Positions 22,072-28,455 of a stretch of DNA of 28,662 bases are shown here, piece by piece (the stretch's first letter is position 1; every line of letters starts with the position of its first letter). The DNA comes from an uncultured Candidatus Saccharibacteria bacterium (lineage in GTDB: Bacteria; Patescibacteriota; Minisyncoccia; JAHIHE01; JAGLIN01). The notes under the pieces were generated by a model. It did no database searches and was not told the DNA's origin. It worked only from the letters and a program-made list of their open reading frames with translations. The position numbers and the translations under genes were made by a program. The DNA is taken from the NCBI GenBank assembly GCA_964490635.1, contig CAZBCK010000005.1, positions 1 through 28,662 of the forward strand. The letters run 5' to 3'.

Positions 22072-23508
22072 TTACACCGAAATACTTTCTACCACCATTA
22101 TTATTATATAAGAAATCAAAATTATCGCGAGACCAATTACCGTATAAGTGACAACCTTCTTTGCTTTGGTTTGTCCGTCAGGATTTGAACCGGAAACCAT
22201 ATAATATACCCCGCCAAGAATAAGAACAAAAAGCGCCAACCCACCGGCTATTGTCAAAAGAAACTCAGCCCCTTCGGTAAACACTAAATCAATATCTTTA
22301 TCATATTTAAAATAATTACCATGATCAGTACTATGTCCCATACTAGGTACGCCTCCGCCAAGAGGCATACAGGCATTTAAAACACCATCCCATAGAAAAC
22401 CGCTATCGCACTCATAACAATCAGTTCCATCGCAACAATCTGTGCCTATTATTTTAGTAGCGTTTGCCAAAGATAAAAAACAGAGTCCGGTGGGACAAAA
22501 ATAAGTGCAGCCGCCCGCGCATGCTCCCGTGCAACATACTCCAAATCCATTATGGTTTATTATTTGAGACGATCCCGTAGCAACATCACAACTTCCTGCA
22601 AGTCCACAATTTGTACCGCCAAAATCTGCTACGCAATTACAGTCAGGATCACCGCCAGTGGCAACACACCCTATTCCATTACAACAACCATCAGCACCGC
22701 AATTACAAGCTACCGCCCCCACGCAATTTCCAGTAACAGGATCAATAATATTAGGATCTATGCAACAATGCCCGTTTACATCGCAAGCATCAACTCCTCC
22801 TCTACAATTAACTCCCGTAAACTCACATGCCAAACCGTTTGTACAACTAGTTCCTACACCTGCTACAGGACCTGCTATTTCATCACAGGCGGTATCTGTC
22901 GTCCCGCAGGCGGATTCAAGCTGACCATCACCATTTCCACTGCAATTTCCAGCATTATTAAGAAATATATTTGCTGCGTTTCCACAATTGCCATTTGCCA
23001 CTCTTTCAAATACTCCGGAACATTTAATACATTTGTCTTCGCTCGCGTCCCAAAATCCCGAATTGAAAAAAACTTCATTCATATCAACCGGATTTATTTT
23101 TCTTACGGTACAAATTCCTCCGTCAAACAATGCGGACGAAAGACCAACTGGACACCTGTCGTGATAACAGACCAATCTATCCGTTGCAGAAGCACTATCA
23201 GCGCAAGATGTTACCGGACCAATAAGATCATATTCAAACTCTGAAAACAATTCATTCATTATTGGTGAATTTATTGATTCTACCGTGCAAGTTCCAGTTC
23301 TACCGCTACAAGCCATACAGCATTCAAAACTTGAAAAGCAATCGGGAGTCATTGCTCCGTCAGTATAACATTCCAGCTCCGTGCTAGGCGTCATACATGG
23401 CGTAGGTATGGTTTTATTCCAAATTCCGGCTTGAGCGGTAAAACCCACAGAAAGAACGAATGAAAAAACAATCCCTGCTATTGATAGAATGCTATTTTTT
23501 GTTTTCAT
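22072..23508 (-). CDS. Cys-rich surface protein with a C-terminal VirB2/TrbC-like pilin module
   Basis: 478 aa. Signal peptide ending AQA, ~345 aa with about 44 Cys (hand count), then TM-(GGVYYMVSGSNPDGQTKAKK)-TM. Confidence 0.8.
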   Translation of the reverse strand: MKTKNSILSIAGIVFSFVLSVGFTAQAGIWNKTIPTPCMTPSTELECYTDGAMTPDCFSSFECCMACSGRTGTCTVESINSPIMNELFSEFEYDLIGPVTSCADSASATDRLVCYHDRCPVGLSSALFDGGICTVRKINPVDMNEVFFNSGFWDASEDKCIKCSGVFERVANGNCGNAANIFLNNAGNCSGNGDGQLESACGTTDTACDEIAGPVAGVGTSCTNGLACEFTGVNCRGGVDACDVNGHCCIDPNIIDPVTGNCVGAVACNCGADGCCNGIGCVATGGDPDCNCVADFGGTNCGLAGSCDVATGSSQIINHNGFGVCCTGACAGGCTYFCPTGLCFLSLANATKIIGTDCCDGTDCYECDSGFLWDGVLNACMPLGGGVPSMGHSTDHGNYFKYDKDIDLVFTEGAEFLLTIAGGLALFVLILGGVYYMVSGSNPDGQTKAKKVVTYTVIGLAIILISYIIIMVVESISV

Positions 23509-23630: not shown

Positions 23631-24704
23631 CTATTTTGTTTTATCGCGATAAACACTATTGTTTTTCTTTTCCCTTTTATAAATAATGAGTGCTGCTATT
23701 CCCGCAACTATCAAAGCTGCTATCACAAGAGCGTATATAAAAAATTTATTTTCCACCTTAGGCGAACAATCCTGCGGACAGTTCTGTTCATTCTCTCCTC
23801 CTTCACATTTACCGTCAACATTGCAAATTGAAACCGGAGGAATTTCCGCCGTTTTTTCAATATAGGAAAATTCTTTTTCTAATCTTGATTTCAAACCACC
23901 TTCTTCCAAAAAATTTACCCAGAGAGAGAAAGTGCCAACTTTGCTCGACTGAAAAGTGGCAAGATTATTTTCAAAAACTAAATATTTAATTTCACCGTCA
24001 GGATTCTTGATAGTTGACGAAATATCCAAATCAGCAGGAATAAAGTTTAGTTTAAGATAAATTAATTCGTCTTTATTAAATACTTTGTTTCTTTGAGAAC
24101 AGTTTTTATCCGCGCAAATGTCAACATCTGCCATAATAAGTTTTCCAACGCAATCAAAATCCGTTTCAGGGACACAATCAGGATCGCACAAACCATCTTC
24201 CATTCCATCGCAGTATTTATCAAAAGAGCCTGATGGACAATCTTCGGGACAAGTTTTATAATTTTCTCCCAAAACACATTTGCCGTTCCCGCAAATACCT
24301 CCTTTAAAATCCAACTCCATTAATTTTGCAACTTCAATTTCTTCTCCCTTTTCCAAAACGCAGACAGCGCACTCCGAAGAAAATGGGACAGCGGAACATT
24401 TCTCGGGATTATTTATGGTTTTTAATTCATATCCTTCTTTTTCACAGTAACCATATTCCTCGCCGCATTTGCCTGCTAAAAATTCTTGAGCCGGGCAACT
24501 TTCTGTTTCAGAAAACTTGCAAATACCCATCTGCCCCGCCTCGTTCTCCTTTATAATGTATTCATAACCCATTTCCTTGCAATAAACCGCGGAAGGATTT
24601 TTCAAAGCAAGCGCGGAAGACAAAGAAAAGGACATTACTATTGCAAAAATTACAACTCCCCATCCCATCTTTTTGCATATATTATTATTTTTTATTATTG
24701 TCAT
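23631..24704 (-). CDS. membrane-anchored Cys-rich protein with a DUF333-like domain and C.G.GEN..CP.DC repeats
   Basis: Start moved to ATG 24704 (or 24668) because the track start overlaps the upstream gene. NPSAVYCKEMGY...GICKF, CGNGKCVLGENYKTCPEDC, CNVDGKCEGGENEQNCPQDC, C-terminal TM with a basic tail. Confidence 0.8.
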   Translation of the reverse strand: MTIIKNNNICKKMGWGVVIFAIVMSFSLSSALALKNPSAVYCKEMGYEYIIKENEAGQMGICKFSETESCPAQEFLAGKCGEEYGYCEKEGYELKTINNPEKCSAVPFSSECAVCVLEKGEEIEVAKLMELDFKGGICGNGKCVLGENYKTCPEDCPSGSFDKYCDGMEDGLCDPDCVPETDFDCVGKLIMADVDICADKNCSQRNKVFNKDELIYLKLNFIPADLDISSTIKNPDGEIKYLVFENNLATFQSSKVGTFSLWVNFLEEGGLKSRLEKEFSYIEKTAEIPPVSICNVDGKCEGGENEQNCPQDCSPKVENKFFIYALVIAALIVAGIAALIIYKREKKNNSVYRDKTK

Positions 24705-24777
24705 ATTATTGTGTTTAACATTCTTACGCTTTATTATTATTTTAAGCAAAGCGGAAAATATAGTTACTTCTAAAATA

Positions 24778-26526
24778 TTACGGAGACAAAATTCCCTTTG
24801 CATAATCACCATATAAACCAGTTCCAAGCAAACATGTTCCATAATCTAAACTTTCATAACCATCGGAACATAAGGGAACAAAACCGCCCCAGCTGTTTTT
24901 AATAATCCAATATTGATTTACATTGTCGTAGCCAACCAAAACCACAGCATGATTAGGAAATCCGCCGCCACAAGTCCAGATAGCACAACCATCTTTATCG
25001 TTTCCGGGGGAAGGCGGTCCTCCTCCAACATTTATCTCCACATACAAAGGACCATTGTGGACTAAAGCATTCTGTAACTTCGCCTTATTAAACGGAGGAA
25101 GGGTCGTTATGTGGATATTACTACTAACTTTCCATAAATCAATTGGGCTAGCATCATCACATACGGCAGGACAAACACTATTCGCACCAAGATAACTATA
25201 ACAATTTTCGCTTGCTATTCCAGTATCTTTAATAAAGGAAAATGCACATGTCCCCCCTCCGCAATCTGAAAAAGAATGACAAGAAGAAACCAAATATTGT
25301 TCTGAAAGGTCTATATCCAAAGTTGAATTATTTTGCTCTATATTATATTTTGCTTCCATTGATCCAGCTGTAGCAAACGCCCAACAATCATTGCATATCT
25401 GATTTTTAACTGAGGTCATCCAATTTTGACCATTCACATTTCTCCAATCAAAAGAATCTGGAGGAATATGAATATCTATGCTGTCTGTGTCTATCGTGGC
25501 AGCGGCATCAGTAATTATTAAAGTAATTATATGATCCCCGACACTTAAGTTGTTTTTATTAAATGCTTGCAAATTTCCGATATTCCCGTCTAAATTAGAA
25601 TTCCAAGAATAAGTATATGGAGCTGTGCCACCAGCAGCCGAACTATCAAAAGAAACTAAATCTCCACTGCTAAAAGCGTCTTCATCTTTGGGAGAAATAA
25701 TTGACGCTGTTATTAAAGCAGCGGCATTAACCGTGACAACCACCGTATCCATATCTGTCATTCCATCATTATCTATAACTCGCAACTGCGCAGTATATGT
25801 TCCAGCTATCGTGTAAATATGCGTTGTTATTCCAGTAGCCGCATTATTCCAATCATAAGTTCCATCGCCATCAAAATCCCATTCATAATTAACTATTGAT
25901 CCGTCCAGATCTGAAGAAAAAGTGCTGCCGTCAAAATAAACGGTGTCAACATCTTTGTCAACCGTAGCTGAGGTTCCTACCGGACCCGGAGCGTTTCCCA
26001 CGCGAGCATCAGCTATGGGAGAAACGGCAACCGCAGGAGTGGTCACATTAAAATTAGCCTCCTCTATCCTTGGTCCTGCATCACTGAAAGGAGTGGTTAC
26101 TCCTGTTTGATAAATATTGCCCAAAGTATCAGAAGCGGTAATAAATACTTTATAATTTCCAACAGGCAGAGTAGCTGGAATCGTCAAAGTATTTCCATAG
26201 ACATCATTGCCCGCCGCGCCATCATTATGAGCGCCATCATCAAAAAGATTTATGTTAGCTACCGTTGTTCCTCCACCATTTTTTATTTGCGCCCTAACAT
26301 AAATTACTCCTGAAACATCAACTACCGTAGAGGAAATAACAACGCTACTGCCTCTATCTTGATTTCCCGGTACAACACTGGTTCCGCTTACAGTCGGCTC
26401 TGGCTGGTTAGCAACTTCAAAAGAAGCACTTTGGACAAAAGAGATAACTAAAACACCTATCAAGATACTACTTACAATTAATAATAATTTAGCTTTGAAT
26501 TGGCTTATTTTATTTGTTGTAAACAT
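24778..26526 (-). CDS. secreted papain-family (C1A) cysteine protease with N-terminal DDG-motif Ig-like domain and PKD domains
   Basis: 582 aa. Signal/anchor, LFDDGAHNDGAAGNDVYG, PKD (YEWDFDGDG...HIYTIAGTYTAQLRVID), PDSFDWR, QICNDCWAF (catalytic Cys), NHAVVLVGY (His), WIIKNSWG (Asn). Confidence 0.9.
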   Translation of the reverse strand: MFTTNKISQFKAKLLLIVSSILIGVLVISFVQSASFEVANQPEPTVSGTSVVPGNQDRGSSVVISSTVVDVSGVIYVRAQIKNGGGTTVANINLFDDGAHNDGAAGNDVYGNTLTIPATLPVGNYKVFITASDTLGNIYQTGVTTPFSDAGPRIEEANFNVTTPAVAVSPIADARVGNAPGPVGTSATVDKDVDTVYFDGSTFSSDLDGSIVNYEWDFDGDGTYDWNNAATGITTHIYTIAGTYTAQLRVIDNDGMTDMDTVVVTVNAAALITASIISPKDEDAFSSGDLVSFDSSAAGGTAPYTYSWNSNLDGNIGNLQAFNKNNLSVGDHIITLIITDAAATIDTDSIDIHIPPDSFDWRNVNGQNWMTSVKNQICNDCWAFATAGSMEAKYNIEQNNSTLDIDLSEQYLVSSCHSFSDCGGGTCAFSFIKDTGIASENCYSYLGANSVCPAVCDDASPIDLWKVSSNIHITTLPPFNKAKLQNALVHNGPLYVEINVGGGPPSPGNDKDGCAIWTCGGGFPNHAVVLVGYDNVNQYWIIKNSWGGFVPLCSDGYESLDYGTCLLGTGLYGDYAKGILSP

Positions 26527-26548
26527 AAATATTTTTAGTTATTTATTA

Positions 26549-27196
26549 TTAAATGTTTTCCGCTTCAGTACAATTCCCCGCTGTATCACAAGCATCAATA
26601 TCAACAAAGTAAGATCCTAAAGCAACAGACGTCCAAGTGCCTGTATAAAGACTATCCCCAGCCACTAAATCGCCATTCGTACCATCATCAACCAGAGTAA
26701 TAGTAGCGATATCAGGCGATTCGTCAGGATCCTGAATATGGGCTATTGTCGTCGCGGGATTTACTCCCGCAGGAGCCGTAACAGTGGCACTAATAGTAAA
26801 TACAGTTCCAACCGGACCCGAGGGCGGAACGACACTGGCACCGGAAATTGATATAGTTTTCTCTACAAGAATATTATGCATAGTTGATACTATAACATAG
26901 GGAACTAAAACTATTATAAGTCCGATAATAGCAGAAACTACCATTTTCTTTGCTTTTTTCTGCCCATCCGGACTTGATCCGGAAACTGCGTAATAGATGC
27001 CACCAAGAATAAGTATCAACAGAAAGATTCCTCCGATGATTTTCAAAAGATAAAGTGTTAGTTCGTTAACTCTGTCAACAACCGGTCTTTCTAGCCAGGA
27101 AAGCTCAGCGCCAAAAGCGGGAAAAGCGAAAAGCGAAATCGAAAAAATAACAAACGAGAAAAATAATTTCTTTGTGGTTATTTTACACATAGTCAT
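26549..27196 (-). CDS. VirB2/TrbC-like pilin module with a C-terminal DDG-motif Ig-like domain
   Basis: 215 aa. Signal peptide ending PAFG, TM-(GGIYYAVSGSSPDGQKKAKK)-TM, then LVDDGTNGDLVAGDSLYTG. Extended -10 TGTTATAAT at 27224-27232. Confidence 0.8.
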   Translation of the reverse strand: MTMCKITTKKLFFSFVIFSISLFAFPAFGAELSWLERPVVDRVNELTLYLLKIIGGIFLLILILGGIYYAVSGSSPDGQKKAKKMVVSAIIGLIIVLVPYVIVSTMHNILVEKTISISGASVVPPSGPVGTVFTISATVTAPAGVNPATTIAHIQDPDESPDIATITLVDDGTNGDLVAGDSLYTGTWTSVALGSYFVDIDACDTAGNCTEAENI

Positions 27197-27280: not shown

Positions 27281-27304
27281 AAAAAGAACGAGCTGTCGCT
27301 CGTC
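27281..27304 (-). terminator. intrinsic terminator of the thioredoxin-fold gene
   Basis: ACGAGC-N4-GCTCGT stem followed by TCTTTTT on the minus strand. Confidence 0.7.
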
Positions 27305-27348
27305 CTCAATTACTTTATATTTTATTTTCAACGAGACCCATAGATCGT

Positions 27349-28455
27349 CTATCCGCAAGATCCGCTATCGTTTCCTCCTGCTTCTCCAAGACCAAATCCG
27401 GGAGATGGAGCAGCTGAAGACAGTTCCGCCTTGCATTCTTCCGGCTGTTCGCTAAACCCGGAACATATAATTTCAAGCAAGCTCTTTGAATCCCTTCCTG
27501 ACTGAACTTTTTTTCCGTTCACAACCAATCCCGGAGATCCCGCAATCGCGTATTTTTCATTATCTTCTTTATAAACATCAAAAATAGGAAATTTTCCGTT
27601 AAGCCAAGTGTCTTTGTTGTTGAAACTTTCCATAACTTTATATTCTTTGTCTGTAGTCGCTACACAGCTTGCCAATTTTGAGGAATTGATTCCAATTTCC
27701 GCAACACATTTATCTGATTCATCCGCTTCAAGAAAACAATTCAGATAATTTTCCAGTTTGCCCTGTTCTTCTTTTTGAATGCAATATTGCCTCAGCTCTT
27801 CCTGCAATTCTTTTTCACCGTGCATAGAGTAAGTACAAAACTTTAACTCAAAATCAATTTTATCACCCAGCGTTTTAAGAACTGGCAATATTCCTTTTTC
27901 AACTTGAGTACCGTAAGGACAATGGCTCATCACAAAAAGTTCAACTACCGGTTTGTCATTTTTTTCCATCTCTAACACTTCTTTTTCCTTTTCAGCTTTT
28001 GCTTTTTTTTCCGCTTCGCGTTTTTGTTTTTCCATTTCCTCAATATCTATAACTTGCGGAAAGAATTTTTTCCCGTCTTTTGTAAGATATGAATTGATTG
28101 GTTCTTGTCCGCTACCAATATCAACAACCACTTTGTATAAGTCTCCTTCTTCAACAAATTCTTTAATCGTTACTTGGCTGCCCTGTGGCATAAGATTCTC
28201 GTTGATAAACGCTTCAATTTTACTTTTATTTTCTTCAGCTGACAAAACTTTTCCTTCCCCTTTCTTTGTGCCAACATCGTTTTTTTGCAGAAAAAACAGC
28301 GCGGAGGCAATTAGCACAAGCGCGAGCAACCCGACAATAAGCATTTTCTTGCTTTTAGCTGTCTTAGACGCAACATATTTTCCTTCCGTTGTTTCCGGCG
28401 TTTTAATTTCTTCATCCCCAAATTTTTTGGCGGTATCGTTTTTTTGTTCTTCCAT
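27349..28455 (-). CDS. membrane-anchored thioredoxin-fold protein (DsbC-N-like plus GILT/DsbA-like domain, monothiol CPYG)
   Basis: 368 aa. One TM, SYLTKDGKKFF (DsbC-N-like), VELFVMSHCPYG, MHGEKE...YCI, AGSP (cis-Pro loop-like) GLVVNG. Confidence 0.8.
   Translation of the reverse strand: MEEQKNDTAKKFGDEEIKTPETTEGKYVASKTAKSKKMLIVGLLALVLIASALFFLQKNDVGTKKGEGKVLSAEENKSKIEAFINENLMPQGSQVTIKEFVEEGDLYKVVVDIGSGQEPINSYLTKDGKKFFPQVIDIEEMEKQKREAEKKAKAEKEKEVLEMEKNDKPVVELFVMSHCPYGTQVEKGILPVLKTLGDKIDFELKFCTYSMHGEKELQEELRQYCIQKEEQGKLENYLNCFLEADESDKCVAEIGINSSKLASCVATTDKEYKVMESFNNKDTWLNGKFPIFDVYKEDNEKYAIAGSPGLVVNGKKVQSGRDSKSLLEIICSGFSEQPEECKAELSSAAPSPGFGLGEAGGNDSGSCG

Follow-up and report, generated by a model that had tools for sequence, protein, structure and literature searches.

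A stretch of 28,662 nt from the genome of an uncultured Candidatus Saccharibacteria bacterium (contig CAZBCK010000005.1; the whole stretch is hereafter called the window) carries on its minus strand two adjacent genes, the first coding for a VirB2-like pilin and the second for a secreted papain-family (C1A) peptidase. The pilin ends with, and the mature peptidase begins with, a copy of the same immunoglobulin (Ig)-like domain, here termed X; the copy of the pilin is referred to as pilX and that of the protease as proX. The two copies are homologous, and the same arrangement was found in all 19 loci compared, where X without exception closes the anchor protein at its very C-terminus and opens the mature enzyme at its very N-terminus. 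This retained pairing suggests a role of the two copies in keeping the protease attached to the pilin on the cell surface. That they do so by binding each other, as a non-covalent tether on which the secreted peptidase hangs, is a tentative reading whose chance we put a little below even, the binding itself being presumed. Together with a third gene, which codes for a DUF333 membrane protein, the two genes form a conserved surface cassette of Parcubacteria-type bacteria of the Candidate Phyla Radiation (CPR).

Over the X domain, pilX and proX share 36–37% of their residues. A BLASTP comparison of the complete pilin and protease gave 47 identities in 133 positions (35%; E = 1e-8 for this single comparison), and tblastn searches of the whole window led from pilX to positions 26107–26394 (E = 2e-6) and from proX to positions 26573–26851 (E = 3e-8); no third X copy was detected in the 28.6 kb window with either domain as query, the next best match having an E-value above 1. 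The Smith-Waterman score of the X domains alone was 120, compared to 33.5 ± 6.2 for shuffled sequences (z = 14), and was not reached by any of 2000 shuffles. The segments on either side of the DDG motif were each significant in the shuffle test (N-terminal z = 5.3, C-terminal z = 7.1), and a single profile built from both X types recovered both copies in every locus with E-values from 1e-28 to 1e-45. The end-to-end likeness of the two termini, which the initial annotation had proposed from an alignment by eye, was thereby confirmed, and the interval 26100–26880 that it had given indeed takes in the two X copies together with spacer and signal peptide. Outside X, the similarity between the second membrane helix of the pilin and the signal peptide of the protease (z = 2.6, reached by 33 of 2000 shuffles) was not significant alone. 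The idea that the signal peptide is a homologous “half-pilin” was rejected on account of this value and the hydrophobic composition of both segments.

AlphaFold2 models calculated from small alignments predict seven strands in the same order for both domains (predicted local distance difference test, pLDDT, 85.6 for pilX and 82.4 for proX), which agrees with the Ig-like fold assumed at the outset. In these models the DDG...D stretch forms a long loop between strands 4 and 5, of which residues 62–66 of the pilX domain have a pLDDT below 50. Foldseek searches with both models returned generic Ig-like and E-set matches with template modelling (TM) scores of 0.5–0.65; the only match common to both that merits naming was a xanthanase module (6fhn, 23% identity). 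A search of the PDB sequences with the X profile yielded 2yn3 alone (E = 0.1), and the likeness of X to Big_13 and DUF4625 is weak. The choice-of-anchor X family, which had been suggested for both copies, was recovered for the pilin, where the 37-position model NF041940 matched aa (amino acids) 166–202 with 37.3 bits (E = 1.6e-9; curated cut-off 25), whereas the match to aa 92–131 of the protease stayed below the cut-off (11.2 bits, E = 0.23).

The pilin layout was read from the translation, in which the site ...AFGA/ELSW is followed by a first helix (residues 46–70), a short charged loop (SGSSPDGQKKAKK), and a second helix (residues 84–106); signal peptides and membrane topology were called by eye. 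Weak matches to TrbC (PF04956) were found in orthologues of the pilin. Both termini of the hairpin would face outward, so that the C-terminal X would be displayed outside the cell. The protease contains the motifs Q...CWAF (VKNQICNDCWAF), PNHAVVLVGY, and IIKNSWG, which presumably provide the catalytic Gln, Cys, His, and Asn of papain-like enzymes. Many C1A enzymes possess an inhibitory propeptide of the I29 type, but no Pfam match to Inhibitor_I29 was obtained in this protease, whose catalytic domain is preceded by X, a PKD domain, and an Ig-like domain instead. Neither the Pfam search nor inspection of the translation revealed a C-terminal or other recognisable anchor in the protease.

The comparison included every fetchable locus with a pilX-ending gene and downstream DNA, representing 18 lineages at less than 90% pilX identity: the window (identical to L091), L001 (also L002, L004), L003, L005, L006 (Parcubacteria), L007 (Moraniibacteriota), L084 to L090, L092, L094, L095, and L097 to L099. 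All relatives are metagenomic and many lie on short contigs, and counts of X per genome refer to the fetched loci. Homologues of the pilin are rare; a word-indexed search retrieved 15, some of them named Parcubacteria or Buchananbacteria, and the same kind of search with the protease N-terminus gave four matches, for which reason an exhaustive profile search was used instead. In each of the 19 loci the X-ending gene is followed on the same strand by a gene whose product starts with a leader, a small-x-small site, the sequence SFE[IV], and proX. The pilin invariably ends with C-x-E-x-[EN]-[ND]-[IL], and the spacers between the paired genes measure 15–124 nt in 17 of the loci. Since the protease starts in a frame different from that of the pilin in the window and in four of five other loci checked, a read-through fusion is no option.

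Between these fixed ends the proteins vary. In most loci the pilX-type copy is preceded by a T4SS_pilin hairpin, and the anchor consists of the bare hairpin, of a Cys-rich region with hairpin (L086, L089, P0005), or of a hairpin followed by a PKD + Ig stalk (L088, L090, L097, L098). The anchor of L087, L093, L096, and L101 is one N-terminal helix in the style of type IV pilins (MKG/VSLYIAL...), whose match to PilX_N (23 bits) is below the cut-off; the X copies of this set possess the Cys pair and a C-terminal ENL motif, which in three members lies at or 1–8 residues from the end, and the L101 gene runs off its contig. The payload of the X-led partner is a C1 peptidase in ten loci, M64-like in L086 and L003, and has precomputed Tricorn and C25 matches in L087; the M28 peptidase P0148 begins with X as well. 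No Pfam match even at E up to 1 identified the payload family in L092, L095, and L099, where the partners end in a domain of approximately 500 aa finishing with GDPTLQLKLKQV(S/T/N)W. The X-led partner genes of L003 (929–3381) and L004 (299–4159) are split into several open reading frames (ORFs) by frameshifts or assembly errors; their intact counterparts are P0137/L086 and L001, respectively. In the moraniibacteriotal L007 (4365–11126) the three-gene cassette is situated between ftsA and ftsZ, and in L087 (2–940) the pair directly follows ftsZ. The PKD + Ig segment of the window protease (aa 170–354) is 57% identical over 185 aa to aa 121–303 of the L090 pilin, from which it appears that stalk domains have moved between pilin and protease genes. 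The general design consists of an anchor, an optional stalk, and X in the first gene, and of X, an optional stalk, and a hydrolase in the next, the constant elements being the two X copies and their terminal positions. Within the domain, proX keeps the motif DDGxHxD in 19/19 loci, whereas the DDG loop of pilX is deleted in L084, L085, and L086 and degraded in L006.

Orthologous copies are 41–98% (pilX) and 31–96% (proX) identical across the 19 loci, compared to 22–39% between pilX and the proX of its own genome in 13 of them, values that do not exceed those against the proX of other genomes. As orthologues resemble each other far more than the two paralogues do, the copies separated before these lineages did; the duplication is old and both products were kept. 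A different pattern was observed in a sister clade consisting of L088, L090, L097, and L098 and, more weakly, L094 and L095. Here pilX and proX of one genome are 52–67% identical, with identical runs of 20, 50, 61, and 21 nt in the first four loci, and the codons of identical residues are themselves identical in 60–78% of cases (32–65% in the other loci). The centre of the domain from IAHIQ to STGFP, which holds the choice-of-anchor motif, is 82–86% identical on the nucleotide level within genomes versus 77–82% between orthologues, whereas the N- and C-terminal flanks are 56–57% identical within genomes versus 77–88% between orthologues. Variants of the central segment, synonymous ones included, are shared genome by genome. 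This mosaic is the signature of gene conversion of the domain centre with flanks that were held type-specific, and it shows that X centres are interchangeable and that the direct repeats can recombine in this clade.

A natural fusion of both functions was found in P0190, a protein in which PF18895/PF04956 and PF00112 occur in one ORF, the only such case among the 120 listed of 311 protease homologues. Residues 1–113 share 64% identity with the L099 pilin-X protein and residues 172–400 share 45% with the C1 domain of the window; the halves are joined by a Gly-rich and Cys-rich linker. A search of P0190 with the X profile, even at E = 10, detected no X. The fused pilin and C1A relative for which the initial annotation had advised a search therefore exists, without both X copies, and their joint loss is what would be expected if the contact between two X domains merely substitutes for a covalent link. 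Conversely, no fusion of pilin, X, and peptidase was found among the 19 loci or in 162 classified proteins (the best 150 of the X-bearing representatives described below plus earlier matches).

The X profile retrieved 2374 representative proteins, 409 of them at an E-value of 1e-10 or better. Most of the best matches are giant surface proteins (1000–4700 aa) with 2–21 tandem X copies, and the genomes concerned belong, according to GTDB, to the Anaerolineae, Acidobacteriota, Auribacterota, Bacteroidota, and archaea. The closest copies outside the CPR are archaeal: nine tandem copies with 50% identity occur in Borrarchaeum (L008 4090–9765), and single copies are present in Methanocellaceae and Woesearchaeota. 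L009 and L014 likewise belong to these archaeal relatives of X, and P0165 (Aenigmatarchaeota) is 42% identical to the PKD-Ig-C1 part of the protease. These resemblances hint that CPR bacteria and archaea have exchanged surface modules. X is a common extracellular Ig-like repeat whose usual neighbour is another X. The initial annotation had named a random scatter of the domain over unrelated proteins of this genome as evidence against its proposal. Half of this applies: X is scattered over many unrelated giant surface proteins of other phyla, but in the CPR loci examined it was seen in the pilin/protease pair alone, except for a partial additional match within the L006 protease.

The first proposal of the initial annotation, a homotypic docking pair, gains indirect support from the X/X gene pair in 19 of 19 loci, from the fixed terminal positions of X, and from the X-less fusion. 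In the tether as we envisage it, pilX would be kept on the outer side of the membrane by the VirB2-like hairpin, or would line a filament should the hairpin polymerise. The peptidase would be exported by Sec and its leader cleaved, whereupon the N-terminal proX would bind pilX. The geometry would be head-to-tail as between neighbouring repeats of multi-X proteins, so that the pair would amount to a tandem repeat split over two chains, with the C-terminal pole and acidic tail of pilX facing the N-terminal pole of proX and its DDGxHxD loop. The existence of tandem arrays of up to 21 copies in many phyla makes X beside X the usual context of the domain and is counted in favour of this tether. The invariance of the proX loop and the loss of the pilX loop in some loci likewise fit a head-to-tail contact via the N-terminal pole of proX. 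A role of calcium in the contact is plausible, and the DUF333 membrane protein would act as a partner specific to the peptidase. Members of the CPR (Patescibacteria) are ultrasmall, mostly uncultivated epibionts that must take amino acids and other building blocks from their hosts or surroundings. For such an auxotrophic epibiont the likely use of the cassette would be the degradation of extracellular proteins.

Several observations weigh against this tether. A Pfam search of all ORFs of 100 aa or more in the 28.6-kb window revealed no family of the type IV secretion apparatus (VirB4, VirB6, and others), so that a pilus is conjectural. That the loop joining strands 4 and 5 lies at the N-terminal pole was deduced from the strand order of a seven-strand up-and-down sandwich and not from inspected coordinates. 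A symmetric loop-to-loop calcium bridge had to be rejected, because the loss of the pilX loop in L084, L085, and L086 is unmatched in the partner proX. The fusion is known from one protein cluster, P0190, whose contig measures 2 kb. The generic Foldseek matches and the large number of representative proteins mark X as a generic Ig-like module, and the adjacency of the two copies could be a relic of a local duplication within a conserved operon.

The main alternative is that the X copies do not bind each other at all and serve as separate stalk or adhesin modules, for example for the same host or envelope ligand, with an adjacency that goes back to local duplication in a co-regulated operon. 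Pilin and protease would in that case meet at one site without contact between them. It would account for the wide occurrence of X, mostly as repeats, among unrelated giant proteins of bacterial and archaeal surfaces, and for a generic Ig-like fold with weak Big_13/DUF4625 likeness; the NCBIfam name, too, marks a surface-protein domain with different anchors. PKD and Ig stalk domains are likewise shared and shuffled between both genes, and gene conversion of the central X segment has been tolerated. However, a mere spacer need not stay terminal in 19/19 loci while true stalk domains move, the fused relative P0190 has dropped both X copies at once, and homogenisation of the centre of X has left its flanks type-specific. 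We regard separate action of the two domains as doubtful, with clearly less than an even chance of being correct.

Far less probable is the second proposal of the initial annotation, a recombination hinge, taken here in the sense that recombination between the direct X repeats makes or unmakes an in-frame fusion of pilin, X, stalk, and protease or swaps modules as a source of variation. An in-register crossover between the two X copies would indeed give an in-frame fusion, and the identical runs of 20–61 nt in L088, L090, L097, and L098 (less in L094/L095), the presence of the PKD + Ig segment of the window protease in the L090 pilin, and the existence of P0190 are in line with such exchanges. 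In the window, however, the X-coding segments are only 49% identical, their longest shared run is 10 nt, and blastn between them gave no significant match, so that this pair is too diverged. The missing pilin-X-peptidase fusion in the loci and classified proteins also speaks against a hinge, and P0190, lacking X, is not the product of an X-by-X crossover. In the Logan contigs of three hydrothermal-vent runs a 251-nt contig matches pilX exactly; neither joints between pilX and proX nor joined reads were seen there, but as assembled contigs alone were examined this result is uninformative on their absence. The hinge is a real evolutionary process in relatives, in the wider sense of gene conversion in the related clade and of moving PKD + Ig stalks, and not a mechanism in the window. 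Finally, a likeness of the two domains by chance or composition, as between unrelated beta-rich and Gly/Asp-rich segments, applies to the helix/signal-peptide part of the BLAST alignment (z = 2.6) and is for X itself practically excluded by the shuffle test (z = 14), the reciprocal tblastn matches (E = 2e-6 to 3e-8), the joint profile, and the same predicted strand order.

If X does bind X, the connector could extend beyond the window. It is conceivable, though we consider it rather unlikely, that this “split tandem repeat” is portable within the CPR and possibly the DPANN archaea, where an X at the tip of a VirB2-like or type IV-like pilin would hold, via the N-terminal X of the enzyme, interchangeable hydrolases (C1, M64, C25-like, and perhaps M28) and form a pilus- or surface-borne degradative organelle based on a hitherto undescribed homotypic docking of two Ig domains, with gene conversion keeping the halves matched in some lineages. 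The rule that a pilin ends in X and the next hydrolase begins with X would then give VirB2-like pilins an enzyme-carrying job and offer a natural connector pair of about 100 aa, possibly useful for surface display. Even without binding between the X domains, the cassette of pilin-X, X-peptidase, and DUF333 protein, the fusion, and the gene-conversion clade can guide the annotation of many hypothetical proteins.

The coordinates of the features are compiled in Table 1. Pilin and protease genes probably form a transcription unit of their own, whose start is marked by the terminator-like hairpin ahead of the pilin gene. Because consensus matching found no such site between the pilin and protease genes, the two are likely co-transcribed. 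The thioredoxin-fold protein encoded upstream of the hairpin has the motif HCPYG instead of CxxC, and several Cys-rich exported proteins are encoded in its neighbourhood. One of these carries a second T4SS_pilin hairpin, so that it constitutes a small pilin array together with pilin-X, the extra domain being C-terminal in pilin-X and N-terminal in the Cys-rich protein; in L005 and L006, too, pilins of this Cys-rich kind are found ahead of pilin-X. Elsewhere the window codes for common chromosomal proteins (ABC transporters, a sigma factor, TrmO, RmlD, a glycosyltransferase), and its GC content ranges from 28 to 43%.

The third gene of the cassette follows the C1 partner in L001, L004, L084, L085, L088, and L090 as well. 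A DUF333 (PF03891) membrane protein accompanies every C1-peptidase partner, and in L104 its gene lies upstream of the fusion gene; DUF333 and C1 were moreover found in the same ORF in 15 of the 120 listed C1 homologues, which stem from other phyla. DUF333 looks functionally tied to C1 peptidases, perhaps as inhibitor, regulator, or anchor. In loci with an M64 payload a different membrane protein of 209–233 aa takes its place (L003 3338–4039, L086 6991–7620). The longest DUF333 ORF of the window has 65 nt (24778–24842) in common with the 3' end of the protease gene; translation probably begins at an ATG further downstream (MTIIKNNN... or MGWGVV...). An apparent mention of DUF333 in the literature (PMC10318531) actually concerns DUF3335 and was discarded.

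Table 1. Features of the cassette, its surroundings in the window, and selected counterparts in related loci (a slash marks the predicted processing site)
Feature	Location	Strand	Remarks
Thioredoxin-fold protein, upstream gene	27349–28455	−	Weak matches to TrbB (pilin-assembly disulfide isomerase), GILT, and thiol oxidoreductase
Terminator-like hairpin	27284–27307	−	10-pair stem followed by a T run, between thioredoxin-like and pilin genes; consensus match only
Pilin-X gene	26549–27196	−	215 aa; signal peptide, VirB2-like two-helix hairpin, C-terminal X; last residues ...NCTEAENI, followed by the stop codon
T4SS_pilin (PF18895) hairpin	26885–27052	−	aa 49–104; 34.8 bits, E = 1.8e-8, cut-off 26.6
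pilX, X domain at pilin C-terminus	26552–26860	−	aa 113–215; predicted 7-strand Ig-like sandwich, conserved Cys pair (ACDxxGNC), tail E-x-E-N-I
Choice-of-anchor X motif (NF041940) within pilX	26591–26701	−	aa 166–202 (LVDDGTNGDLVAGDSLYTG...); loop between strands D and E
Spacer, pilin stop codon to protease start codon	26527–26548	−	22 nt, AT-rich
Secreted C1A (papain-family) peptidase gene	24778–26526	−	582 aa; signal peptide, X, PKD, Ig-like, Peptidase_C1
Predicted Sec signal peptide	26425–26526	−	aa 1–34 (...SFVQSA/SFEVANQ); read from sequence
proX, X domain at mature protease N-terminus	26107–26406	−	aa 41–140; DDGAHND loop
PKD domain of protease	25729–25968	−	aa 187–266; Pfam
Ig-like domain after PKD	25465–25728	−	to about aa 354
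Peptidase_C1 (PF00112) catalytic domain	24883–25461	−	aa 356–548; 113 bits, above cut-off
DUF333 (PF03891) protein, third cassette gene	23631–24842	−	C-terminal membrane helix
Cys-rich exported protein	22072–23508	−	478 aa; C-terminal second T4SS_pilin hairpin, 26 bits, just below cut-off
pilX-type domains on type IV pilin-like N-terminus	L087 995–1735; L093 862–1620; L096 615–1257; L101 914–1476		
P0190, pilin-C1 fusion	L104 681–1883		400 aa; contig found in two samples
X-led partners without Pfam payload	L092 6329–10396; L095 6746–10585; L099 1111–5256		1279–1381 aa
DUF333 genes in relatives	L001 5657–6187; L084 3140–3718; L085 2571–3131; L088 3417–4004; L090 4157–5071; L104 121–636		

No description of a pilin-X/X-peptidase pair was found in the literature searched. 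VirB2-like pilins with T4SS_pilin or TrbC hairpins are known to form small, highly variable arrays on CPR chromosomes that are thought to mediate host contact (PMC12102498); such arrays are widespread in Patescibacteria and essential in one cultivated case (PMC12102498). The window with its two pilin genes, and its relatives with two to three, resemble these arrays. However, the arrays of that survey are located near virB4, whereas the window contains no gene for a type IV secretion ATPase or channel, and Ig-tipped pilins paired with X-led peptidase genes are absent from that survey (PMC12102498).

A second comparison is with the giant adhesins that carry choice-of-anchor X or Big_13 domains. 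The pilin copy passes the NF041940 threshold, and its GNY..i.A.D..GN end resembles Big_13. The family name, which we take to denote a domain in surface proteins that use different anchoring devices, suits the cassette, where either a VirB2-like hairpin or a type IV pilin-like N-terminus precedes pilX. In contrast to the adhesins, the X of the cassette is single in each protein, split over adjacent genes, and always terminal, and its fusion to a pilin hairpin as anchor was not encountered in the other sampled phyla. Among solved structures the nearest to X are generic Ig-like folds (TM about 0.6). The fusion P0190 can be viewed in the light of the Rosetta-stone principle, by which gene fusions hint at interacting proteins: the pilin and peptidase genes that are separate in most genomes correspond to one fused ORF. 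Here, however, the fusion removes the shared domain rather than joining the full proteins and is hence informative on the role of that domain.

The closest functional analogue would be the cohesin-dockerin system of cellulosomes, in which enzymes are tethered to a cell-anchored scaffold. In both systems an anchored protein and secreted hydrolases would each bear a small calcium-associated module, and the enzymes are interchangeable while the connector is constant and terminal on the enzyme. The likeness is functional alone: the X pair has no sequence or fold relation to cohesin and dockerin, no Pfam match to either was found in the pilin or the protease, and both partners are paralogues of one Ig-like domain whose mutual binding is presumed. 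The anchor, moreover, is a pilin hairpin, with one enzyme per anchor gene. Systems in which secreted enzymes are attached to a surface anchor by exchangeable modules are known in kind, and what would be new in the cassette is the connector and the anchor.

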